From positions 31,517 to 95,516 of the forward strand of contig JAOAUN010000055.1 in NCBI GenBank assembly GCA_030157545.1: 64,000 nucleotides of DNA, written 5' to 3'. The notes below the pieces were generated by a model, which had not been told where the DNA came from, made no database searches, and saw only the letters and a program-made list of their open reading frames with translations. The position numbers and the translations under genes were made by a program. Within the stretch, counting starts at the first letter, position 1, and every line of letters starts with the position of its first letter. The DNA comes from Burkholderiaceae bacterium. Lineage in GTDB: Bacteria; Pseudomonadota; Gammaproteobacteria; Burkholderiales; Burkholderiaceae_D. Shown piece after piece: positions 8,736 to 64,000 of the stretch.

Positions 8736-9445
8736 TGCAGTGGCGTCACTTTCTGCTCGCTCAGCGTTTGCAGGTTCAGTCGCAAGATCGCGTCCGGATA
8801 TTTGGCAACTTCGAGTTTTGCTTCCAGCCAGAACAGCCGCTTCGGATAACGTTTTATTTTTTCCAGATACGGCAGTAGCGCCAGGTAATTTCCCTTGATG
8901 ACGATTTCTACGCCGTGCTGATGAATCACTGCCGGCGGTGGCGCTGGCGGCGCCGAACCGGCAATCATCGGCGGCGCAGGTTTCAGTGCAGGTTTGCCAT
9001 CGGCGTCAAGCGGCGCGCGTGGCAGCAGCGGCAGCACCGGCAGAGTCCTTAACGACACCAGCTGCAAGCCGGGCGTGGTGTCGAGCAGCGACTTCAGCAA
9101 GGCTGTCAGTTTGAGCGATGTGCCATCGTCTTCCGACAGCAGGGCATCGGTTTCGGCAATCAGGCGTATCAGTTTGTCGAGTTCGGCTTTTTTTCGAACG
9201 TCACTGTGCTGCGCCAGTTCGGCGGACAGTGCGTCGATCTGATGCCGTGATTTTTCGGTATCTGCCAATAGTGTTTCCATTTTTCCATTCAATTGCCTGA
9301 AGCGTTTTTCCTGTGGCGATAACAGCAAACTATCGATTAAAAAAAATACCAGCACGACAGCAGCGAAGAGCATCAGTACACGTTCGCGCAGCGGTTTCTG
9401 TTCGAACAGAATGGCAAGAGCTTGCAAGGTGTGCTGGTTTTTCAT
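8732..9445 (-). CDS. mshJ: pilus assembly protein, PilO/MshJ-like
   Basis: N-terminal RERVLMLFAAVVLVFFLI TM anchor, a coiled-coil, then a periplasmic domain. Called by gene order within the MSHA-type block. Confidence 0.55.
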   Translation of the reverse strand: MKNQHTLQALAILFEQKPLRERVLMLFAAVVLVFFLIDSLLLSPQEKRFRQLNGKMETLLADTEKSRHQIDALSAELAQHSDVRKKAELDKLIRLIAETDALLSEDDGTSLKLTALLKSLLDTTPGLQLVSLRTLPVLPLLPRAPLDADGKPALKPAPPMIAGSAPPAPPPAVIHQHGVEIVIKGNYLALLPYLEKIKRYPKRLFWLEAKLEVAKYPDAILRLNLQTLSEQKVTPLQ

Positions 9446-11042: not shown

Positions 11043-12286
11043 CAGTAGGGCTCCCACCAGTTATACGGCTGCATAAAGCTGACCAATCCGCGCGGGGTGG
11101 CAGGGTCGACATTTTTCAGGCACGCAAAGCCGGCTGCCCACTGATCGGTAGTGACGCCACTTTTAGTGATGTGAAAATCGGTCGGCACGCCGCTGGCAAA
11201 CAGGCTGTCGATGCCGCCGGAGGAGGCAGGCTTGTAGGCGTACCAGACCTCGGAATACATATCGGTATAAATCGAGGTATAGCGCTCCAGTAGCACCAGC
11301 GGCATGTTGACTGCGCCAAAGGTCACCGAGGTCAGCGTGTCATTGGTATTGAAAGACTTGGCCGAGAACCCGAATACGAGCGTGTCGGCGCCCTTGCACC
11401 AGCCGGCCGTACCTGTGGCGCTGGTGCCACTGCTGCGGCCATCGGTGACCTGGCCCATCACGATATTGGAAGTGCCGGTCGTACCCTTGTTGGAGGCGGA
11501 ACTGCCGTCGGCATAGGCGCCCAGATAGGTCACGCCTGTACCTTCAAAAATAGCGCCGACAGCGACATAGTTACGGTCGGCTTCAAGATTCTGGTTAACG
11601 TAATAGTCGCCGATGGAGGTCGTGGTGGCGATCGTGCCGCGTCCGCCTACGCTGTTGAGGCCCGAGCTCGATTCAATATTCCATCCCTGCGTGCAGGTGC
11701 CGGCATAGGTGCCGGTCTGGTTGCAGGTAGTGGCAGAGGCGTTGGGTCCGCCTGAATCGAGCTTGCGACGGAATGCCAGGTTGCTGACGACGACGGAGTT
11801 GGCCTGATAGGGGGTAATTTTTTGCGTGATGTTGCTGGTGTAGCCACCGAAGCCGGAGCTGCCAGCCTCCGTCGGCGAGCAGTAGGCAACATCGAGACTG
11901 ACAGTGCGCGCCGTCGCGCCGACGTTGGCTTGTGTCTGGATGCGGCAGCCTTTGCTGGTCAGCAGGCCGTTGCAGCTGGAAGCCACTGCCATCGAGCTGA
12001 TCTGGCTGGCGACAAGGCTGTAGCTGCCAGCACCGAGCGCGCCGGAAGGCTGCGCGCTGTTGGTGCAGGACAGCGGGCCGGCATTGCGCATTTTAGCCAG
12101 TGCGATTTCAACACCGCTGTCAGCCAGCATCAGTGCCTGCAGGCTTTGAGCGTGGATGACAGCGGCATAATTATTTGCTTCTGCTGCCGACAATAAAAAT
12201 CGCATCGACGTTGCCACCACGACTAGCAGCAGCAAGATCGCCAGATAGGTAAATGCGCCGCGCTGGCGTTGCATGGCGGCGTTCAT
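11042..12286 (-). CDS. large PilX_N/MshP-like pseudopilin, candidate pilus-tip adhesin
   Basis: N-terminus MNAAMQRQRGAFTYLAILLLLVVVATSMRF...LMLADSGVEIALAKM is the PilX N-terminal type and has no Glu5. The C-terminal ~300 aa is rich in Gly/Ser/Thr. Start set at ATG 12286 (ATGA overlap with the upstream stop). Confidence 0.55.
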   Translation of the reverse strand: MNAAMQRQRGAFTYLAILLLLVVVATSMRFLLSAAEANNYAAVIHAQSLQALMLADSGVEIALAKMRNAGPLSCTNSAQPSGALGAGSYSLVASQISSMAVASSCNGLLTSKGCRIQTQANVGATARTVSLDVAYCSPTEAGSSGFGGYTSNITQKITPYQANSVVVSNLAFRRKLDSGGPNASATTCNQTGTYAGTCTQGWNIESSSGLNSVGGRGTIATTTSIGDYYVNQNLEADRNYVAVGAIFEGTGVTYLGAYADGSSASNKGTTGTSNIVMGQVTDGRSSGTSATGTAGWCKGADTLVFGFSAKSFNTNDTLTSVTFGAVNMPLVLLERYTSIYTDMYSEVWYAYKPASSGGIDSLFASGVPTDFHITKSGVTTDQWAAGFACLKNVDPATPRGLVSFMQPYNWWEPY

Positions 12287-14401: not shown

Positions 14402-14693
14402 GAAATGGCTCCTTGAAATAATTGCAAACTTGCGGGCAGCGTGGTCAACCCGACTGATATTTTTGAAGTCAGGCGGCGTGCCTTAACAGGGCGGGCGTAG
14501 CGATGTTTAAAAACCGCTGCTCGCCTTTCCGTATGACATAAGTTAATCCTGAGTGAGACTACTTAGTCAGTAGAAAAGAGGGGGAAAAGCAGTGTTGTTC
14601 GGGTACTTGAGGAATAGAAGTTGTTGCGATCTATGGCGAGAATTTTTTCCAGGGGGCGGAACGAAAGCGGTTGTAGCCGATTAGAATTGAACG

Positions 14694-15830
14694 CTAAATA
14701 ATATCGAGCCCAGCCGTGCCAGCAGCCAGATCACGGCTTTTCGATTCTTTGCCGTAGAGCTTCAATGCCAGCCGCAAGTCGTTCACGGAATCGGCATTGC
14801 GCAGCGCGTCTTCCATGGATATCTTGCCAGCCTCGACCAGGTCAAACAGCGCCTGATCGAAGGTCTGCATGCCAAGTTCGCGCGACTTTTTCATGATCTC
14901 CTTGATCTGGTGCACATCGCCTTTGAAGATCAGATCTGAAATGAGCGGAGAATTGAGCATGATCTCGACCGCGGCACAGCGTCCGTTACCCTCTTTCAGC
15001 GGGATCAGCCTTTGCGAAATCATGCCTTTCAGGTTCAGCGATAAATCCATCAGCAATTGCTGGCGCCGTTCTTCCGGAAAAAAATTCACGATCCTGTCCA
15101 GCGCCTGATTGCTATTGTTTGCATGCAGTGTGGCCAGACAGAGGTGGCCGGTTTCGGCAAAGGCAATTGCATGGTCCATTGTTTCACGGTCGCGGATTTC
15201 ACCGATCAGAATCACGTCCGGTGCTTGTCGCAAGGTGTTCTTGAGTGCGGTATGCCAGTCGGCGGTATCAGTGCCGATTTCGCGCTGTGTGATGATGCAA
15301 TTGATGTGCGGATGCACATACTCGATTGGATCTTCGATGGTAATGATGTGGCCGTGGCTGTTCGCATTGCGGTGCCCGATCATGGCCGCCAGCGTGGTCG
15401 ATTTGCCGGAGCCGGTTGCGCCTACCATGATCACTAAACCGCGCTTGGACATCACGACTTCTTTCAACACCTGCGGTACGTGCAATGCATCGAGTTCGGG
15501 AATATCGGTAGTAATGGTGCGCAGTACCATGCCGGCTTTTGCCTGCTGCACGAAAGCTGATACGCGGAAGCGGCCGATGTCGTCGGGGCTGATCGCGAAA
15601 TTGCATTCTTTCGAAATGTCGAATTCTACGCGCTGGCGTTCGTTCATGACTGCCTGCACCAGTGCTGCCGCATCGTCGGGCGACAGCGGTTGTGTTGATA
15701 CCGGCATCAGCTTGCCGCTGAATTTGATGGCAGGCGCAAAGCCGCTGGTGATGAACAGGTCGGAGCCGCCCTTGCTTTTCATCAGCCGCAAAAGCTCATG
15801 CATGAGTTTTTTTGCGCTGTCGGATTCCAT
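14694..15830 (-). CDS. pilU: PilT-family retraction ATPase PilU
   Basis: Walker A GATGSGKST, plus the ITIEDPIE and ILIGEIRD boxes. 378 aa, second of a pilT-pilU pair. Confidence 0.85.
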   Translation of the reverse strand: MESDSAKKLMHELLRLMKSKGGSDLFITSGFAPAIKFSGKLMPVSTQPLSPDDAAALVQAVMNERQRVEFDISKECNFAISPDDIGRFRVSAFVQQAKAGMVLRTITTDIPELDALHVPQVLKEVVMSKRGLVIMVGATGSGKSTTLAAMIGHRNANSHGHIITIEDPIEYVHPHINCIITQREIGTDTADWHTALKNTLRQAPDVILIGEIRDRETMDHAIAFAETGHLCLATLHANNSNQALDRIVNFFPEERRQQLLMDLSLNLKGMISQRLIPLKEGNGRCAAVEIMLNSPLISDLIFKGDVHQIKEIMKKSRELGMQTFDQALFDLVEAGKISMEDALRNADSVNDLRLALKLYGKESKSRDLAAGTAGLDII

Positions 15831-40400: not shown

Positions 40401-40549
40401 TCCAAATGCAAGTGATTTGTATTTGGAGCTTATTTCCAGAAATTCAGAGCGCAGCGAAACCCACGGCAATGCACAAAGAAATGAAGGATGGAGCAGGAGG
40501 AAACCGGGAGACCGGGCCGGCAGTAACTGCCGCTCCGAAAGACAGGAAG

Positions 40550-56360: not shown

Positions 56361-57131
56361 ATGAAACACATTCCCAAGAAGCGCTTCGGTCAAAACTTTT
56401 TGACCGATCAATTTGTGCTGCAAGATATCATCAGTGCCATTGATCCCCATGCGGATGACAGCATGGTCGAGATCGGCCCCGGGCAGGGCGCAATGACACA
56501 GCTCTTGCTCAATACGCTCGATAGTTTGCAGGTCGTAGAACTGGACCGCGATCTGGTCGCGCTATTGAAAAAAAAGTTTGATCCTGAAAAACTCATCGTC
56601 CATTCAGGCGACGCGCTACAGTTTGATTTTGGCGGGTTGCCGACTACGCCCGGACGCAAGCTGCGCGTGGTTGGCAACCTGCCTTACAACATATCGACCC
56701 CCTTGCTATTTCATTTGGCGCAGTTCGCTGACCAGATTGAAGACCAGCACTTCATGCTGCAAAAAGAAGTCGTGCAACGCATGGTGGCCGCGCCCGGAGG
56801 CAAGGACTACGGTCGCTTATCTGTGATGCTGCAATGGCGCTACCAAATGGATTTACTGTTCATCGTGCCGCCGACAGCGTTTGATCCGCCACCCAAAGTC
56901 GAATCCGCCATAGTACGCATGCGCCCGCTTGCTGCGCCGCTGGATTGTGAAGAAGCCAAACTGCAGCTGGTGGTGACCAAGGCATTTTCACAACGGCGCA
57001 AAGTACTGCGCAATTGCGTCGCCGGCATGTTCACTGAGGCGCAATTGCATGACGCTGGCGTTAACCCGCAGGCGAGGCCAGAGACAGTGCCGCTGGAGCA
57101 GTTTGTTGAACTTGCGCGTAGAGTGGTGTAG
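56361..57131 (+). CDS. rsmA: 16S rRNA (adenine1518/1519-N6)-dimethyltransferase
   Basis: KKRFGQNFLTDQFVLQDII, VEIGPGQGAMT, GNLPYNISTP. Confidence 0.9.
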   Translation: MKHIPKKRFGQNFLTDQFVLQDIISAIDPHADDSMVEIGPGQGAMTQLLLNTLDSLQVVELDRDLVALLKKKFDPEKLIVHSGDALQFDFGGLPTTPGRKLRVVGNLPYNISTPLLFHLAQFADQIEDQHFMLQKEVVQRMVAAPGGKDYGRLSVMLQWRYQMDLLFIVPPTAFDPPPKVESAIVRMRPLAAPLDCEEAKLQLVVTKAFSQRRKVLRNCVAGMFTEAQLHDAGVNPQARPETVPLEQFVELARRVV

Positions 57132-57278
57132 AGCGCAGCGAAACCCACCATCACGCCACCATTTGAAACTCACTCCAACACGCTTTAGCATCTGTAGTTC
57201 ATGCAACAAATGGCGCACTCTGTGCAAGTTGTGCATGTTGAACTAAGTTTGTTGACGCACAATCCGGCAATCCATAAA

Positions 57279-57312
57279 TTTGCATCCTTTCAAGTTTTGC
57301 CAAGGATGCAAA
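57279..57312 (+). promoter_or_regulatory. 11-bp perfect inverted repeat covering the SD of the ABC exporter gene
   Basis: tttgcatcctt (57279-57289) and aaggatgcaaa (57302-57312) with a 12-nt loop. The right arm contains AAGGA and abuts GTG 57313. Confidence 0.5.
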
Positions 57313-59445
57313 GTGATATCAAGTATCAGCCGTTCAAAGCGATCAGCGCCCGACTGTGTCGCTCTTGATACGCAACATTTGCTCTGGGCGCTCGCTAGTC
57401 TGTGTGCGATAAAGAGGATACCCTTCGATGCAGAACTCTTCCTGCGTCAATTCCCACCACCTTATACGACTGATACCTTGCTGCAGGCAGCACGTGATTT
57501 GGGCCTGCGCATCAAACGCAAGCGGCGCGCACTCACAGCGCTAGATCACCGCTGCCTGCCGTGCCTGGCACTACGCATCACGGCAGCAGATGAGCGAGCC
57601 AGCCTGGACCTGATCACCGATGTCACGCCCGAACAGATCGTTTTTTTTGCCGCAAGCGAGAACGCCAGCACAACGCAGTCATGTGGCGATTATGCGACCG
57701 ACTATAGCGGCATCGTATTTCTGGTCGTAGGCGTAAGCTCGCCGCAGCAAGATCCGGATGCGCCAGCAGTCGGGTCGCAATTCGGCTTTCGCTGGTTCTT
57801 GCCTGAATTGCTCAAGCATCGCCGCGTCTGGCGCGATGTCTTGCTGGGCTCGCTGGTCCTGCAATTGCTTGCGCTGGCTACTCCCTTATTTACGCAAGCT
57901 ATTATTGATAAAGTAGTCGTACATCGCACCACCAGTACCTTGCTCGTGATTGGTATTGCGCTGGCCGTGTTCATGTTTTTCTCTGCGCTGCTTGGATGGG
58001 CGCGGCAAATCCTGTTACTCCATACCGGTAATCGCGTCGATGCCGTACTGGCGATGACGGTGTTCAAACACTTGTTCAATTTGCCGCCGCGTTATTTCGA
58101 GAAGCGACCGACTGGTGTCATTGCCGCGCGATTGCAAGCAGTCGAAACCATACGAGAATTCATTGCCAGCACGGCCGTCGCATTGATACTCGATATTCCA
58201 TTCCTGATTATTTTCATCGGCATCATGTTCTGGTACAGCGTCATGTTGACGTTGATCGCTTTATCAGTACTCACAGCTATTGCCTTGCTCAGCATGGCGA
58301 TCGCACCCTTATTCCAGTCGCAACTGAATCAGCAATTTCTGCTGGGCGCGCGCAATCAGGCTTTCATCACGGAATATATTGCCGGCGTCGAAACCGTCAA
58401 AAGCCTGCAATTGGAACCGCAATTGCAGGCGCGCTATGCCGTCTTTCTGGGCGACTATCTGAATGCGACATTCAAGACACGCCAACTGGCCAATCTTTAC
58501 AACACTATCGCCGGCACGCTCGAGCAGTTGATGAAACTACTGATTCTGATTGTGGGTGCGTATATCGCCATGCAAAGTACGGAGTTCACCATCGGCATGC
58601 TGGTCGCGTTCCAGATGTTTGCCGGTAATTTGTCGAGCCCGATGATGCGACTGGTCGGCCTGTGGCAGCAGTTCCAGCAAGCGCGTCTGTCAGTCACGCG
58701 CCTGGGCGATGTCATGAACGCGCCCAGCGAGCCGTATTCGATACTGCCAGTCAGGGCAGGACAAGGTTCTGGCAATATCGAGATTGAAGGACTGGCATTT
58801 CGGCATAGCGACAAGCATCCGTGGCTGTACCGCGATTTCAATCTCGTCATGCCTGCGGGTAGCAGGATTGCATTAATGGGGCCATCAGGCTCGGGCAAGA
58901 GCACCTTCGCCAAACTGCTGCAGGGTTTCTACCAGGCCGAAGGCGGACGCATACGCATAGACGGCACTGACATTCATAATATGTCAGCCAATGCCTTGCG
59001 CAGTTACTTCGGCGTTGTGCCACAAGAAACCGTCCTGTTCTCCGGCACCCTCTACGAGAACCTGCTGGTAGCCAGCCCGCATGCCGGCTTCGAAGAAATC
59101 ATGCATGCCTGCATGTTGGCTGAAATCCACGACACGATCGAACAACTGCCAGATGGTTACCAGACTGCCATCGGCGAGCGCGGGGCTGGTTTGTCTGGCG
59201 GCCAGCGGCAGCGCATTGCCATTGCACGCGCATTGCTGAAGCGGCCGCAGATCCTGATCTTCGATGAAGCGACCAGCGCTCTCGATGCCGACACAGCTGC
59301 GCAATTTGCCCGCACTATCAACCACCTGCAAGGGCAGGTCAGCATGCTGTTCATAACGCATGCGCTGCCACCCGGCTTGAAAATAGACAGAGTAATTTAT
59401 TTGCAGCCAGAGCCTGCGCTGGCAGTGGATGGAGTCCGCTCATGA
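57313..59445 (+). CDS. HlyB-like type I secretion ABC transporter with N-terminal C39-like (apparently non-catalytic) domain
   Basis: N-domain ...DTQHLLWALASLCAIKRIPFDAELFLRQF...LLQAARDLGLRIKRKR...LPCLAL aligns by eye with the HlyB C39-like domain. 6-TM domain; Walker [37 protein letters not shown]. The track start at 57280 is a TTG; GTG 57313 has an AAGGA SD. Confidence 0.8.
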   Translation: MISSISRSKRSAPDCVALDTQHLLWALASLCAIKRIPFDAELFLRQFPPPYTTDTLLQAARDLGLRIKRKRRALTALDHRCLPCLALRITAADERASLDLITDVTPEQIVFFAASENASTTQSCGDYATDYSGIVFLVVGVSSPQQDPDAPAVGSQFGFRWFLPELLKHRRVWRDVLLGSLVLQLLALATPLFTQAIIDKVVVHRTTSTLLVIGIALAVFMFFSALLGWARQILLLHTGNRVDAVLAMTVFKHLFNLPPRYFEKRPTGVIAARLQAVETIREFIASTAVALILDIPFLIIFIGIMFWYSVMLTLIALSVLTAIALLSMAIAPLFQSQLNQQFLLGARNQAFITEYIAGVETVKSLQLEPQLQARYAVFLGDYLNATFKTRQLANLYNTIAGTLEQLMKLLILIVGAYIAMQSTEFTIGMLVAFQMFAGNLSSPMMRLVGLWQQFQQARLSVTRLGDVMNAPSEPYSILPVRAGQGSGNIEIEGLAFRHSDKHPWLYRDFNLVMPAGSRIALMGPSGSGKSTFAKLLQGFYQAEGGRIRIDGTDIHNMSANALRSYFGVVPQETVLFSGTLYENLLVASPHAGFEEIMHACMLAEIHDTIEQLPDGYQTAIGERGAGLSGGQRQRIAIARALLKRPQILIFDEATSALDADTAAQFARTINHLQGQVSMLFITHALPPGLKIDRVIYLQPEPALAVDGVRS

Positions 59446-59909
59446 TTATCCGCTTTGCCCATGTCAGCGACATACCGGCGTGCATAGAGCTCGGTCGACA
59501 GCTACATCAGATGACACGTTTTTCCCGCTACGGGTTTGAGCCTGAGCGCATTGCGACCAGCCTGCATGCACTCATCACCGTCGGGCAGGAGCAGAAGCGC
59601 AGCCATTGTCTTCTGCTGGCAGAAAATCGTGGCGCGCAACTGACGGGTTGTTTGCTCGCCTGCATAGAGCGACATATTTTCTCCGACCAACCGGTCGCAA
59701 GCGTCATCACCTTCGGCGTACTGCCGCAAAATCGTATGGGTGGCACAGCCCTTAAATTATTGGAAGCGTTTAAACGGTGGGCGCAGAATCGTGGCGCATT
59801 TGAAATCAATGCCGGTGTCAACAGCGGCTTGCACATAGATAAAACAGATCGACTCATGAAGCGTCTTGGCTTTGAGGCTACCGGCGGAAATTACACATTA
59901 CGTTTGTAG
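59442..59909 (+). CDS. GNAT-family N-acetyltransferase
   Basis: 155 aa. Acetyl-CoA motif A VLPQNRMGGTALKLLEAFKRWAQNRGA and a C-terminal ...MKRLGFEATGGNY. Its ATG overlaps the ABC exporter stop (ATGA). Confidence 0.7.
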   Translation: MIIRFAHVSDIPACIELGRQLHQMTRFSRYGFEPERIATSLHALITVGQEQKRSHCLLLAENRGAQLTGCLLACIERHIFSDQPVASVITFGVLPQNRMGGTALKLLEAFKRWAQNRGAFEINAGVNSGLHIDKTDRLMKRLGFEATGGNYTLRL

Positions 59910-59930: not shown

Positions 59931-60599
59931 ATGCTCAGGAAATTGACACAGCAAGATATCGATATCCTGCAAACTTATCAGATTAAAGGGCAGTGCGATC
60001 GTTATTGGAAATATCTCGCCAACCTTGGCGAACGCTATGCAGCATTGTCCCCGGGTGTAGTGTTCGATGAAAACGATGATGGTGCGCCACTGCGTCATTT
60101 TTACTGGACCCAGTACCGCGGCGCAAACGGCGAAAAACCAGACAACAACGAGCGTAGTCGATTTGGTCATGCGTTGATGCGCGTAGACATCGCCCAGCGT
60201 AGCGTGTTGTTACAAGCAGGCGAAAAAAAGTCTGCGCTTCATTTATCGGCCTCACATATTTATCATCAGCATAAGCGCGTACTGCGCTATAGAAACTGCT
60301 GGACGCCCATGCAAATACTGCAGCCGTTTTATGACAGTCCCAATCCGAATGTCAATATCGCGCAGAAGATCTGGGATTCGTTTGTCGATATGGCTGATAT
60401 CTATGCTGAACAGACCACCCTATCTGAGATTTTGGGATCGATCTCTCTTTTTCAGGCACATCTATTTTGGTTGGCCAAACAAGATCCGCGCGCTCTTAAT
60501 CAACGGGTGATGCACTGGATTGAGTCCGACATCTTGCCGGTCATGATGGCGGCAGCAACGGATGCTGATACTGATCCTGATTCAAGCCCCGATCAGTAA
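59931..60599 (+). CDS. hypothetical protein (222 aa), first gene of a repeated 3-gene module
   Basis: ATG with an AGAGG SD, no recognisable domain, acidic D/P/S-rich tail. A decayed second copy of its 3' end lies at about 61339-61424. Confidence 0.5.
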   Translation: MLRKLTQQDIDILQTYQIKGQCDRYWKYLANLGERYAALSPGVVFDENDDGAPLRHFYWTQYRGANGEKPDNNERSRFGHALMRVDIAQRSVLLQAGEKKSALHLSASHIYHQHKRVLRYRNCWTPMQILQPFYDSPNPNVNIAQKIWDSFVDMADIYAEQTTLSEILGSISLFQAHLFWLAKQDPRALNQRVMHWIESDILPVMMAAATDADTDPDSSPDQ

Positions 60600-60666
60600 G
60601 TCAGCAATCGATATTCGTTAAATAAATTTATCCATTTACTGAAATACATTCCGAATAACTAGTCTT

Positions 60667-61158
60667 ATGAAATTACTGCATTCAATACTTTTAAGAATTG
60701 CAATCGCTACCATTGTTTGCGTACTTGCTTCTTGTTCGACAGCTGGGCCAAAGGTAGTTTTCCATTCATTTGAATTTAATGCGAACTGGGATAGCCCTGA
60801 CATTGAAGTGCTTGATTACAAATACGGGAATTCAAAGAATCCGGGAACGCATCCACCTGATTGGGCATACGAGACCGGACAGATAGCACAAAGATCAGCG
60901 ACCGGTGGATATATGTTGCTCGGCGATTTTCTTTACGTGAAATGGCGACTGAAAGGAGCGAGCAAGATTTACGAAGCGAATGTTGATCTGCGTAGTCGCT
61001 TACCTAAAAACATGTTGGACAACACAATTTATTTTGTAGTCAGAGGACCTCAGCTGTACGTCTATCTGATTACACCAAAACATCTACCTCCCGGTGCGCC
61101 ATCAAACGGATTGCGCATGTACGGGTCGCGCATAATAAAAACGCTGTATCCAGATTAA
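60667..61158 (+). CDS. lipoprotein (163 aa), candidate immunity protein
   Basis: MKLLHSILLRIAIATIVCVLASC has an LASC lipobox. Paralogue of 61492-61977, sharing LDY+YG.S..P..PDWA, LYVKWR, VYLI and YP. Confidence 0.65.
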   Translation: MKLLHSILLRIAIATIVCVLASCSTAGPKVVFHSFEFNANWDSPDIEVLDYKYGNSKNPGTHPPDWAYETGQIAQRSATGGYMLLGDFLYVKWRLKGASKIYEANVDLRSRLPKNMLDNTIYFVVRGPQLYVYLITPKHLPPGAPSNGLRMYGSRIIKTLYPD

Positions 61159-61176
61159 TTTAATTGAGAATTTGTT

Positions 61177-61424
61177 GTGGCCGGTCGTGTGGCAGATAAG
61201 TCAAGGCACTAGAAATATTCAACATCAGCCAACACAAGCCGATGCAATTGCTATTGAAAATATTTCGCTACCCTTGGCGAATGCTTTGCAGTTTTTGACC
61301 CTTGGTGTCGCTATTAATTGCTAGTGCAAGATTGTACGGTGCTGGATTGAGCTCGACTCTTGCCAGTCATGATGGCAGCGGCAACGCATACAGAACTGAT
61401 CCTGATTCAAGACCCGATCAGTAA
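61177..61424 (+). pseudogene. chimeric gene remnant: 5' fragment resembling the 62020 toxin gene fused to the 3' end of a second copy of the 222-aa gene
   Basis: 61177-61260 resembles the first ~28 codons of the 62020 ORF. It shares ATTCAA-N18-GATGCAATTG (translating TRNIQHQPTQADAIAI versus TKQEIQAQVQQVDAIV) but has a stop and a frameshift. 61339-61424 is near-identical to 60512-60599, the end of the 222-aa gene including its TAA. Confidence 0.45.
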
Positions 61425-61491
61425 GTCAGTAATCGATATTCGTTAGATAGATTTATCTATATACAGAAATATATTCCAGATAACTGGCCTT

Positions 61492-61977
61492 ATGAAATTA
61501 CTGCATTCAATACTTTTAAGAATTGCAATAAGTACCATTGCTTGCGTGCTTACTTCATGTTCAACAACTGAAGGTAGGGTTGTTGAGCATGGTTTTGGTT
61601 TTGATGTTCGTCGTGCTAATCCAAGTGTAGAAATTCTCGATTACCGCTATGGCGATTCCAGTTTTCCGGTAAGAGCTCCAGACTGGGCCGTAAAAGAAGG
61701 TAAGAAATTTTATTTTAACAACGTGTATGGAGCGATGAGAGTTGCAGATGTTTTATACGTTAAATGGCGAATCGAAAATTCTGAAAAAATCAATGAGGAA
61801 TTCATTAATTTAAAGAGTCGAATGCCTGCTGATTTAAAAGGCCAAATAGTCTACTTCGACATCAATGAGGCAGAACTTTCTGTGTATTTGATTTCCCGAA
61901 AATTACGATCACCGGAAATGGAAAAGATCGGCCCGGAGATGTATCAGTCACGAGTAGTAAAGAAAATTTATCCTTGA
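61492..61977 (+). CDS. lipoprotein (161 aa), paralogue of 60667-61158, candidate immunity protein
   Basis: MKLLHSILLRIAISTIACVLTSC has an LTSC lipobox. The signal peptide and about 70 nt of upstream DNA are near-identical to copy 1. The mature part is strongly diverged. Confidence 0.65.
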   Translation: MKLLHSILLRIAISTIACVLTSCSTTEGRVVEHGFGFDVRRANPSVEILDYRYGDSSFPVRAPDWAVKEGKKFYFNNVYGAMRVADVLYVKWRIENSEKINEEFINLKSRMPADLKGQIVYFDINEAELSVYLISRKLRSPEMEKIGPEMYQSRVVKKIYP

Positions 61978-62019
61978 GCCACTTCTTGGCTTGCTAATTA
62001 GGTTCATAGGGAAACGAAA

Positions 62020-64000
62020 ATGACCGCTCGCTTTGCCGGAAGTTTGACTAAACAAGAAATTCAAGCACAAGTACAGCAGGTAGATGCAATTGTGAATTCA
62101 GCGGTGAGGACGGTGGGGGCGGAAGAATTTGTATTCTTGGCTGCATTTGATGGAACGAGAAATGATAAAAATGATATTCCGAGAGGGGAGGTTGGTACCA
62201 ATATCGCTCAATTGTGGGAGCAATATAGTACTAGTGTTTCTAAAAGTTCAGAATCCGGCGGTGGATATTATGCAGGACCCGGAACAGTAAATTCTCTAGA
62301 AGGTTCAGCGTTTCTCCCTGTTCAAGTAACACAGGAGGCTGTAAATACTGCAAATAGAGCATACAAAAATTTCCAATTTCAGGCAGTTGAATGGCTTAAG
62401 GATCACCCCGGGGGATCTATTGCAACTGCTATCACTGCATTCAGCAGAGGCGCTAGCGCAGCAGTCATTTTTTCTCAGCTGGTTTTCGAGCGAGGTTTGA
62501 CGGATCCTGCTACAGGAGCAATCCTCATCCCTCCCGGTGACGTCAAATTCGCCGGTGGTATTTTGTTCGATCCGGTCATGACTGGCGTAATGGGAAATAT
62601 GACGTTCCCGCCCAATACGCAAAATCTTGTCGTCATCCGTGCTTCCAGTGAATACCGCGGCATGTTCAATGCGGCGGATTATTCGAATCAACCTGGCGCC
62701 ACTACTTTTGATTTCATTGGCAATCACGCCAACATAGGCGGCTCCTACCTGAATGACAATATATCCGCATTGGTACTCGAAGCCGGGACGGGTTTCTTGC
62801 AAAGATTAGGTGTCACAATCAGTGACGTGCCTGCCCAACGAAAATTTGTGCCCGATAGCGTTGTGTTCGTACGTGATGAAGGAATCGACACTTACGGACA
62901 AACTATCTGGAGTACCTACGGCACTTACGGTGAGTATAAAGGCCCTCGTTTAACCGACAAGGTCGCCAGTTTTCCGGTCGTTTCGGATGATGGCAGCGTC
63001 AGAAGCTTTACCGATTACGCTGGAAGGCTAGTCACTTATAGTAAAACGCAGAATGCTGAAACCGGCACTAAAAGCGTGGTGACAATCAAGGACTACTTTA
63101 ACGCTACCACCAGTGTCGTTATGAATCGCGACTTCAATTCTGATGGTAATCCTGATCAATTTGAACTGATCAGAACCGATAGCGACGGCAGCAAAACCCA
63201 TGTCATACAGGATCTTGATAGCGCAAGAATTGTCGCCGATGAGCTAGCTTATCGCACTGATGCTACCAATAAATTTACCGAAGTCCAGCATTCAATCTAT
63301 GGCGTAGTCGTCAATCGCAGCTTCATCGAGGGCGAGGTCACGCAGACTGAGCTGGATAAAATCCGCAATAATGTGCCGCGCGATTTCCGTGAGTCCGGAA
63401 ATCAGGATGGGGTTTCACTGTATTCCAATTCTTTAAATACAAAAGGCATCGTCAATCTCGCAGCGCGGGTCGCTGAAAAATTCGCTGAAGTTCAGCTCGC
63501 AGCATATTTGGAAAATGTTCAGTACACGGCGGACGGTTCGCCTGCATTTTTCCCGATATCAGCGTCTCTTACGCCAGCAATGGAAATGCTACTTCAGTTT
63601 GAACTGAAGTCTTTTACCAGTAATGGCCGCGTCGATGTCAGACTGAACGATAAAAATCAGCTTGTCATAGCCAGCGTCAATCGTGAAATCATCATTGATG
63701 AAAATGGCGAAGTCTGGCGCCACTATCGTGACACACAAAATGGTGAAGTTATCGAACAGGCAGACAGTAATGGACAACTACTGACGCGTGTTAGCTTCAG
63801 TACCAGACAGGATGGCAGTGCAGCGCCCTTGCCTGTGACGACTATCGACTATTTCGACAAAGGCCAGCCCTATGCAAGGATTGCAACGACGACCCAGTCG
63901 AATGCATTAAGGCAGACCACGCTAAAACTCGCCGCGGATAAAGATAGCTTCACTGCAGACTACATCGACGCCCGACTCGTCAAGATCACGCACGCCACCA
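62020..64000 (+). CDS. large protein with N-terminal DUF2235 / Tle1-like alpha/beta-hydrolase (phospholipase-effector) domain; 3' end outside window
   Basis: I read 660 codons from ATG 62020 to the window end with no stop. An in-frame TAG lies at 61999 and AGGGA lies upstream. The ORF is missing from the track because it has no stop. Motifs in DUF2235 order: FVFLAAFDGTRND, GTNIAQLW, YYAGPGT, ITAFSRGASAAVIFSQLV (nucleophile-elbow type AFSRG). Confidence 0.65.
   Translation, partial: MTARFAGSLTKQEIQAQVQQVDAIVNSAVRTVGAEEFVFLAAFDGTRNDKNDIPRGEVGTNIAQLWEQYSTSVSKSSESGGGYYAGPGTVNSLEGSAFLPVQVTQEAVNTANRAYKNFQFQAVEWLKDHPGGSIATAITAFSRGASAAVIFSQLVFERGLTDPATGAILIPPGDVKFAGGILFDPVMTGVMGNMTFPPNTQNLVVIRASSEYRGMFNAADYSNQPGATTFDFIGNHANIGGSYLNDNISALVLEAGTGFLQRLGVTISDVPAQRKFVPDSVVFVRDEGIDTYGQTIWSTYGTYGEYKGPRLTDKVASFPVVSDDGSVRSFTDYAGRLVTYSKTQNAETGTKSVVTIKDYFNATTSVVMNRDFNSDGNPDQFELIRTDSDGSKTHVIQDLDSARIVADELAYRTDATNKFTEVQHSIYGVVVNRSFIEGEVTQTELDKIRNNVPRDFRESGNQDGVSLYSNSLNTKGIVNLAARVAEKFAEVQLAAYLENVQYTADGSPAFFPISASLTPAMEMLLQFELKSFTSNGRVDVRLNDKNQLVIASVNREIIIDENGEVWRHYRDTQNGEVIEQADSNGQLLTRVSFSTRQDGSAAPLPVTTIDYFDKGQPYARIATTTQSNALRQTTLKLAADKDSFTADYIDARLVKITHAT

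Follow-up and report, generated by a model that had tools for sequence, protein, structure and literature searches.

Repeated lipoprotein genes and the remnant between them

The stretch of DNA analysed here (the window) comprises 64,000 nucleotides (nt) of a metagenome-assembled genome (MAG) of a Burkholderiaceae bacterium (GCA_030157545.1, contig JAOAUN010000055.1, positions 31,517 to 95,516). Near its right end, a gene for a 222-amino-acid (aa) protein and two lipoprotein genes precede the gene for a giant repeats-in-toxin (RTX) protein, called the toxin below. Together they form the variable core of an operon for type I secretion, in which genes for an ABC transporter, a GNAT-like protein, the 222-aa protein, one to three lipoproteins, the 2527-aa RTX protein and an HlyD-type protein follow one another. 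The full locus (20 kb; L001) was read from MAG contigs of GCA_030157425.1 and GCA_030157845.1 that are 100% identical to the window. The features of the core are the following, with basis in brackets where one applies.

59931-60599, forward strand: 222-aa protein, a stand-alone Smlt3024-family domain (NCBIfam NF050128, E 1.4e-11, residues 5-154)
60515-60745, forward strand: repeat copy 1, comprising the 3' end of the 222 gene, its stop codon, a 67-nt spacer and a lipoprotein signal peptide (blastn self-comparison)
60667-61158, forward strand: lipoprotein 1 (163-aa type), lipobox LASC, putative orphan or extra immunity gene (open reading frame, ORF; family alignment)
61160-61252, forward strand: remnant part a, the lipoprotein-toxin junction and first ~24 toxin codons (GTG at 61177), with a stop and a frameshift inside (nhmmer profile)
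61243-61308, forward strand: remnant part b, codons ~22-47 of a second 222 gene copy, with an in-frame stop (blastn)
61342-61570, forward strand: repeat copy 2, comprising ~29 final codons of the second 222 copy, in which two single nucleotides are deleted, then TAA, the spacer and the lipoprotein 2 signal peptide
61492-61977, forward strand: lipoprotein 2 (161-aa type), toxin-adjacent, putative cognate immunity gene
62020-64000, forward strand: 5' part of the 2527-aa RTX protein gene, which runs past the window end (full gene in L001)

Compared with itself by blastn, the region aligns 60515-60745 with 61342-61570 at 86.6% identity over 231 nt (E 1e-74), and the repeated block ends exactly at the lipobox. 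An earlier note on the window had reported this recurrence; the contents of the block are as it described them, although the "near-identity" it claimed was slightly generous. It was also right that the mature lipoprotein parts are homologous but strongly diverged, since they are 38% identical (46% over 162 aa for the whole proteins, E 1e-51), and that the region is AT-rich, with a GC content of 0.39-0.44 in 60500-62000 against about 0.55 in the flanking genes. A promoter and terminator scan of the region gave nothing informative. The mature part of lipoprotein 1 is 84% identical to the toxin-adjacent lipoprotein of a related locus, L011, and that of lipoprotein 2 is 85-87% identical to L014b and P0032, which have different signal peptides. 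Lipoprotein 2 is a chimera joined at the lipobox, with a 163-type signal peptide on a 161-type body, and it ends 42 nt before the RTX start codon.

The non-coding stretch between the two lipoprotein ORFs (61159-61491) holds a remnant, in which the earlier note had recognised, at 61177-61260, a toxin 5' end broken by a stop and a frameshift. When 61159-61345 is compared with the 5' end of the window toxin by strict local alignment (+2/-3), the score does not exceed the shuffled background (p~0.09), and blastn likewise gives no match there. On that alignment alone the toxin remnant was for a time considered a misreading, an idea overturned once the 5' ends of four orthologous toxin genes were combined into an nhmmer profile, which matches 61160-61252 (E 1.6e-9) as its sole significant match in window positions 1-61990. 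Aligned globally from the start codon with toxin 5' ends, the remnant shares 44-52 identities with them over 76-77 columns (z = 5-9 relative to shuffled sequences), the best alignments being with L014 (52 identities in 76 columns, z 9.2) and L007 (50 in 77, z 7.5). Because the ortholog profile and these alignments exceed background, we regard the remnant as containing a real toxin 5' piece (61177 to ~61249, ~24 codons).

Beyond this piece, the remnant has a content that had been missed. At about 61243 it switches into codons 22-47 of the 222 gene: 59994-60042 matches 61243-61291 at 82% (blastn, E 7e-8), with 77% identity over 66 nt (p<0.0005 against shuffles). Parts a and b are joined at a TGCRAT microhomology, which links toxin codon ~24 to 222 codon ~22. 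Judged by its sequence, the remnant is a three-piece chimera of a toxin 5' end, a 5' part of the 222 gene and, across a deletion of ~430 nt, the 222 3' end; the first and last of these pieces had been named correctly. The junction between toxin 5' end and 222 codon 22 is the novel joint expected of a tandem duplication reaching from 222 codon 22 to toxin codon 24, and a complete second toxin copy therefore need not be assumed. The tandem array of [222 gene, lipoprotein, toxin] twice over, as first proposed, is upheld as a duplicated and partly deleted module, and the single deletion invoked to trim it does not suffice, since both this junction and the second, internal deletion are needed. The most economical order of events would begin with a tandem-duplication-type joint fusing toxin codon ~24 to 222 codon ~22 at TGCRAT. 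The ~430-nt deletion would later have gutted the second 222 copy, leaving the present order of 222 gene, lipoprotein 1, remnant of toxin 5' end fused to the 222 gene, lipoprotein 2 and toxin.

Variation of the array and of the toxin head

We inspected about 15 loci as gene contexts of the lipoprotein family. The order of 222 gene, lipoprotein and toxin is kept in all ten close-family loci, and the number of lipoprotein genes between the 222 gene and the toxin is one in L005 and L012, two in the window and L011, and three in L014 and L025. In L012 the contig ends, after the lipoprotein, at the start of an IS30-like transposase (11440-11601; identified by eye from its translated N-terminus only), which may mean an interrupted toxin gene or a break in the assembly. 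The lipoproteins fall into types that are 83-90% conserved between genomes and 38-60% identical across types.

The toxin genes vary at one end. In a DNA identity profile, their first ~400 nt are 46-63% identical between genomes and the remainder 75-95%. At the protein level, residues 131-440 are 81-95% identical whatever the type, and residues 1-130 form two types. In the window and L025, which share type I (75% identical), the gene immediately upstream encodes a 161-type lipoprotein, and the spacer from this lipoprotein to the toxin is conserved between the two. Type II (L014, L011, L007; 67-73% identical) has a 163-type lipoprotein immediately upstream in all three. Genomes carry both lipoprotein types, and the one adjacent to the head matches the head type. 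These five loci suggest that lipoprotein type co-varies with the hypervariable toxin N-terminus.

Copy number also differs between near-identical strains. The locus L005, from a 99%-identical strain, has a 222 gene, lipoprotein 2 and the toxin. Its sequence agrees with repeat copy 1 over the 222 3' end and most of the spacer and with copy 2 thereafter. Given this switch within the spacer, recombination between the two 231-nt repeats would account for its single copy. The contigs L003, L004 and L006, from three further samples, end in or beside the repeat. The chimeric lipoprotein 2, the switch in L005 and these contig ends lead us to regard the conserved 231-nt block as a recombination substrate.

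Some of the same facts would be expected if the two-copy arrangement were an assembly artefact, with the 231-nt repeat joining two strain variants: the window comes from a MAG, the contigs of L003, L004 and L006 break in or near the repeat, and a 99%-identical strain has a single copy. We consider an artefact highly improbable. The unique remnant (61159-61341) must sit between a lipoprotein 1 gene and a block of 222 3' end, spacer and signal peptide in some genome, and two assemblies (L001, L002) share the identical 20-kb arrangement. At 13% divergence, the repeat copies are different enough for assemblers to tell apart, and arrays of two or three copies occur in independent genomes.

Partners of the lipoproteins, the 222-aa protein and the secretion genes

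The window toxin carries at its N-terminus (~residues 1-440) a divergent Tle1-like (DUF2235) alpha/beta hydrolase head, of which the first ~130 codons are hypervariable. Its motifs AFSRGA (Ser142), LFDPV (Asp184) and GNHANIGG (His236) are invariant in three orthologs. Against PF09994 (27-bit cut-off) the orthologous heads of L011 and L018 score 28.2 and 35.3 bits, and most homologs found carry a precomputed PF09994 annotation. The hydrolase heads have no signal peptides, and searches of the toxin head against PDB sequences, with the single sequence and with a 3-sequence profile, gave no match. One head relative, P0235 (48% identical), carries the XVIPCD signal of type IV secretion systems (T4SSs; PF20410, E 6.5e-27). 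Another, 47% identical, is a stand-alone 496-aa protein of Chromobacterium sp. ATCC 53434 (L024, 4466-6491) with an unrelated 172-aa signal-peptide protein upstream, an arrangement suggesting that one head family uses different immunity-like partners.

The RTX body holds Big_9 and cadherin domains and HemolysinCabind repeats in 13 stretches (E 5.5e-55). These repeats, together with the flanking type I secretion system (T1SS) ABC and HlyD-type genes, identify the toxin as a type I secretion substrate. The body also contains two modules homologous to the FrpC self-processing module (SPM; 6SJW, E 4.7e-24). In four of four proteins these SPM-like modules begin after Arg or Lys (Arg-Pro 1091/1092 and Lys-Pro 1540/1541; L001 15363 and 16710) and not after the scissile Asp, so that they may be non-cleaving or use another chemistry; an FrpC-type "clip" release of the head was set aside, as the Asp-Pro bond is absent. 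A hydrophobic Gly/Ala-rich stretch at toxin residues ~790-910 (L001 ~14460-14820; Kyte-Doolittle up to 2.25 over 19 residues; conserved in P0132, a relative described below) is a possible membrane-insertion or translocation region.

The lipoproteins belong to a family of 476 proteins at E<=0.001, none of them Pfam-annotated, in which the lipobox Cys23 is nearly invariant. An AlphaFold2 (AF2) model of lipoprotein 1 is beta-rich and of high confidence (pLDDT 92.9). Foldseek comparison of this model with the PDB gave no match at E<=0.001, the best TM being ~0.19 to unrelated chains, a value that the signal-peptide helix in the query may lower; 5EDF and 6PDK (the FrpD/Smlt3025 fold) were not among the 50 best matches listed. 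Sequence searches of Pfam, NCBIfam and the PDB with the lipoproteins found no DUF3304, Tli, FrpD, Smlt3025 (NF050129) or other match, so that the DUF3304/Tli families named in the earlier note for comparison were among those not matched.

These results bear on the possibility that the lipoproteins are FrpD-like docking partners, tethering the RTX head to the outer membrane of the producer for adhesion or retention. FrpD and FrpC provide a precedent for such a role: the lipoprotein gene immediately precedes the gene of FrpC, a T1SS-exported RTX protein with an SPM, and FrpD binds the N-terminal domain of that protein with sub-nanomolar affinity; moreover, the window toxin has its two SPM-like modules along with adhesin-type Big_9 and cadherin domains. 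We nevertheless regard docking as rather unlikely. The predicted lipoprotein fold matches neither FrpD nor Smlt3025, NF050129 is not matched in sequence, and lipoproteins of this family also pair with a stand-alone hydrolase that has no RTX body and persist intact beside destroyed toxin genes, in the loci L023 and L020 described next. Several diverged types per genome also suit immunity better. The two roles may not be mutually exclusive, since FrpD itself has been proposed as an immunity protein.

The expectation in the earlier note that the lipoproteins would be linked to a toxin in other genomes holds for four loci outside the close family, all of them without a 222 gene. In L015 (Sterolibacterium MAG) and L018 (Halothiobacillus MAG), a lipoprotein homolog stands directly upstream of a Tle1-like gene, and in L023 (metagenome contig) it lies 26 nt upstream of a stand-alone 341-aa PF09994 protein. 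The fourth, L020 (Noviherbaspirillum MAG), reads lipoprotein, 62-aa head fragment, lipoprotein, 81-aa head fragment and RTX scrap; by sequence it is an independent instance of [lipoprotein plus toxin 5' fragment] in duplicate. Such tight two-gene linkage with the hydrolase across lineages, along with the envelope location implied by the lipobox, would also fit a lipase-specific helper (a foldase or activator, cf. Lif/LipA) for the Tle1-like hydrolase. That role seems decidedly improbable to us: helpers are normally single-copy and co-conserved, and here one to three strongly diverged copies occur, orphan copies lie beside insertion sequence (IS) elements, copies are kept after decay of the toxin, and the hydrolase heads lack signal peptides.

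The 222-aa protein has no signal peptide and a variable acidic tail. Its match to NF050128 covers profile positions 4-164 of 436 with 43.8 bits, against an equivalog cut-off of 800 bits, and its likeness to the Smlt3024 family is therefore, by sequence, domain-level homology only. No Pfam family was found in it at E<=0.1, XVIPCD (PF20410) included, and the same library detects PF20410 in P0235. A profile search of 1.8 billion representatives found 104 relatives, many of ~430-445 aa, the size of Smlt3024-type T4SS effectors. An AF2 model built from nine sequences is all-helical and poor (pLDDT 50.6), and is unfit for a fold search. Giant relatives with a 222-like domain at residue 1 are P0132 (2255 aa, RTX, E 2.5e-36), P0156, P0179 and P0187. 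In P0132, encoded at L019, this domain occupies residues 4-205, and from residue 265 on, the RTX body aligns at 44% identity with the part of the window toxin that reaches from residue 442 to the end. Because P0132 bears the Smlt3024-like domain on a toxin-like body, we take the Smlt3024-like and Tle1-like domains to be alternative heads of one RTX scaffold. The P0132 gene is preceded by a GNAT-like gene and by a tandem pair of paralogs (328 and 363 aa; L019 1010-3276); the first of the pair matches the Smlt3025 family (E 1.6e-6), and no lipoprotein of the window's family was found at L019. Immunity-gene duplication is therefore also seen in this sister system.

The 222 gene is intact in all ten loci seen, with a dN/dS of 0.07-0.16 that is near the values of the ABC and GNAT genes, and a decaying vestige was rejected on a dN/dS of ~0.1. 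The domain was probably stranded when a cassette of lipoprotein and Tle1-like head replaced it on the RTX gene, with selection keeping it since and a function presumably retained or acquired. The lipoprotein is unlikely to be an immunity protein to the 222-aa protein, as it pairs with the hydrolase where the 222 gene is absent and the 222-like head of L019 has Smlt3025-like neighbours.

By analogy with the trios known for some type VI secretion system (T6SS) lipases, the earlier note had proposed a three-gene module of 222-aa adaptor or chaperone, immunity lipoprotein and lipase toxin that had been tandemly duplicated and had then lost sequence in a single deletion. It would account for the gene order of the ten close-family loci, for a remnant holding both toxin and 222 pieces, and for purifying selection on the 222 gene. 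We find it improbable. The 222-aa protein belongs to an effector-domain family and not to a known adaptor family; a domain like it is fused as an RTX head in L019, which has no such lipoprotein; and it is absent from most other pairs of lipoprotein and Tle1-like gene (L015, L018, L020 and L023 all lack it). Two rearrangements are required, and the T6SS analogy fails on the toxin itself, which is a 2527-aa RTX protein with type I secretion genes on either side; no T6SS genes are among those called in the 20-kb locus L001. As read from these loci, the 222-aa protein is outside the repeated immunity/toxin unit proper, and the recurring unit is [lipoprotein plus toxin 5' end].

The genes upstream of the core complete the operon.

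57280-59445, forward strand: HlyB-type type I secretion ABC transporter (NCBIfam TIGR01846 type_I_sec_HlyB, E 2e-171; Pfam ABC_membrane, ABC_tran)
59442-59909, forward strand: GNAT-like acetyltransferase, 155 aa (Pfam Acetyltransf_1, 20.9 bits against a 20.7-bit cut-off)

The ABC transporter gene is the first of the operon and heads all related loci; the mechanical ORF starts with TTG at 57280 (721 aa), and the public call lies 33 nt downstream at 57313 (710 aa). The start of the GNAT-like gene overlaps the ABC stop, and the gene sits 3' of the ABC gene in every related locus, including L019 with its other RTX head (301-852), with a dN/dS of 0.04-0.16. Its product, translationally coupled to the ABC gene, may by analogy be a functional counterpart of HlyC-type RTX acyltransferases, which would suit the hydrophobic region of the RTX body. 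At the other end, an HlyD_3/AprE-type membrane-fusion gene lies directly 3' of the RTX gene (L001). A repetitive extragenic palindromic (REP)-like element, GAGCGCAGCGAAACCCACC, has window copies at 57131-57149 and 40447-40465 (2 observed against 0.05 expected) and forms an inverted pair in the L011 spacer between its two lipoprotein genes (11295-11375); it is often translated in spurious ORFs as "...GFAAL..." or "...RAQRNP...".

Interpretation and comparison with known systems

Given these patterns, we consider it reasonably probable that the locus is the lipoprotein immunity array of a polymorphic RTX toxin with an N-terminal variable end, reshuffled by recombination. The RTX protein would consist of a conserved body and an exchangeable N-terminal head, here a Tle1-like hydrolase with putative lipase activity. 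For the lipoproteins, the most likely role is that of periplasmic immunity proteins, which would neutralise this head by binding it, probably via its hypervariable first ~130 residues. The toxin-adjacent lipoprotein would be the cognate one, and the extra, diverged copies may protect against other head variants in the population. Reshuffling would occur at two conserved stretches, namely the block of 222 3' end, spacer and signal peptide, and the toxin 5' end. From their place in the envelope, the lipoproteins could shield the producer, either against the head that it makes itself, while or after this is exported, or against heads that kin cells deliver. Export by a T1SS proceeds C-terminus first, which would explain why the variable warhead is N-terminal. 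Both heads are used elsewhere as cargo of the Xanthomonadales-type T4SS (X-T4SS), in Smlt3024 and P0235, which argues for a target in the bacterial envelope, and the hydrophobic body region is, by analogy, a candidate for carrying the head across the target outer membrane. In outline, the view of the earlier note that this is a polymorphic toxin/immunity-type locus is upheld by the comparison of related genomes for copy number and remnants that it had proposed: one to three copies, shared lipoprotein types, N-terminal co-variation and the head fragments of the independent L020 array all point this way.

Several observations weigh against this interpretation. The co-variation comes from five loci only. 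In L007, the sole lipoprotein gene is split into two ORFs (54 and 58 aa; 8600-9060) beside a toxin that is intact for 271 codons to the contig end; the split could be a real pseudogene or an error, the contig being metagenomic with 6x coverage. Three lipoprotein homologs (L016, L017, L021) have no nearby toxin gene, two of the three lying beside IS elements. Orphan immunity genes are usual in polymorphic toxin systems, and for that reason we do not take these three as a refutation, although the immunity role stays putative. The lipoprotein itself is without sequence or structural likeness to any known immunity family or solved structure. The remnant, which follows the 163-type lipoprotein 1, shares slightly more identities with two type II ends (52 and 50) than with type I ends (44-46), and its head type is not assigned with confidence because the third type II end scores only 44, like type I. 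The window head reaches 21.1 bits against PF09994 (E 2e-4, profile positions 6-124 of 287), below the 27-bit gathering score, and its family has GNHAN, with Asn where the DUF2235 consensus GxHxD and the relatives in L023 and L024 have Asp; for both reasons the activity of the head is not assured. Finally, the proposal would require the N-terminal head of a T1SS substrate to enter a periplasm, its own or a neighbour's, by some route, and the neutralising role, the target compartment, the lipase activity and the order of events are drawn from comparison.

A broader reading may be advanced tentatively and with some doubt. Giant T1SS RTX proteins could form a mirror-image class of polymorphic antibacterial toxins, with exchangeable N-terminal heads from the X-T4SS effector pool, with immunity genes and orphan modules of [immunity gene plus toxin 5' fragment] upstream, and with specificity in the first ~130 residues. 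The ~140-residue lipoprotein would then be a new immunity fold family with hundreds of members. Type I secretion is scarcely represented among the well-studied contact-dependent interbacterial weapons, and we found no description in the literature searched of a DUF2235-headed RTX protein with a lipoprotein array, which is weak evidence given incomplete coverage. The locus offers a concrete, testable system for the antibacterial-RTX idea, having a head with hydrolase motifs, two natural head variants each with its own lipoprotein type, and strains that differ in the array. It also suggests a likely role for an unannotated lipoprotein family of ~500 detectable members, and indicates that T1SS and T4SS cargo have effector heads in common.

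The locus shares its architecture with several known systems and fails at least one defining feature of each. Multifunctional-autoprocessing RTX (MARTX) toxins have exchangeable effector domains that include alpha/beta hydrolases. Like them, the window toxin is a giant T1SS RTX scaffold with exchangeable enzymatic domains, and its hydrophobic stretch could serve membrane insertion. Unlike them, it has a single N-terminal head and not an internal effector array with a cysteine protease domain, it is preceded by dedicated lipoprotein genes, and no eukaryotic target is implied.

Tli1, the immunity protein of the T6SS effector Tle1, is a lipoprotein, and Tli copies sometimes occur in tandem. The window resembles Tle1-Tli1 in its putative DUF2235/Tle1-like catalytic domain and in the small envelope lipoproteins next door in multiple copies. 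It differs in that delivery would be by a T1SS on a 2527-aa RTX scaffold, in that its lipoprotein falls in no described family, and in that its domain is divergent (below the Pfam cut-off, GNHAN). The toxin domain DUF2235, with a GxHxD consensus, was listed only with type II and type VI secretion trafficking in an earlier survey (Zhang et al., 2012).

FrpD and FrpC of Neisseria meningitidis have the same placement of a lipoprotein gene immediately upstream of a large T1SS RTX gene, SPM-type modules in the body, and a lipoprotein that, in the window as there, would be expected to bind the RTX N-terminal domain. The window lipoprotein, in contrast, is about half the size of FrpD and has no detectable likeness to FrpD or Smlt3025 in sequence or predicted fold; the window further has a Tle1-like head, modules that follow Arg or Lys and not Asp, and diverged lipoprotein arrays with toxin remnants. 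An antibacterial effector/immunity reading has already been proposed, as a hypothesis, for the FrpC/FrpD pair (PMC6759196). The same study reported that Smlt3024 of Stenotrophomonas maltophilia, a T4SS effector, slows growth when in the periplasm, that it is neutralised by Smlt3025, a lipoprotein with an FrpD-like fold, and that Smlt3024 homologs head RTX proteins (PMC6759196). P0132 bears out this last remark. The 222-aa protein matches the N-terminal ~150 residues of Smlt3024, and in L019 two Smlt3025-like genes precede the RTX gene that bears the domain, whereas the window encodes the domain as a 222-aa protein of its own, with no XVIPCD, RTX body or Smlt3025-like neighbour.

A further parallel in organisation is with contact-dependent inhibition (CDI; CdiA-CT/CdiI) systems, Rhs orphan arrays and polymorphic toxin systems in the sense of Zhang et al. 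(2012), which likewise combine a conserved scaffold, an exchangeable toxin end, an adjacent cognate immunity gene, orphans with toxin fragments, and recombination at the junction. In the classical form, the toxin domain is C-terminal and the immunity gene follows it. The window shows the mirror image, with variation at the N-terminus of the toxin and with immunity-like genes and remnants upstream, an arrangement that suits a C-terminal T1SS signal.

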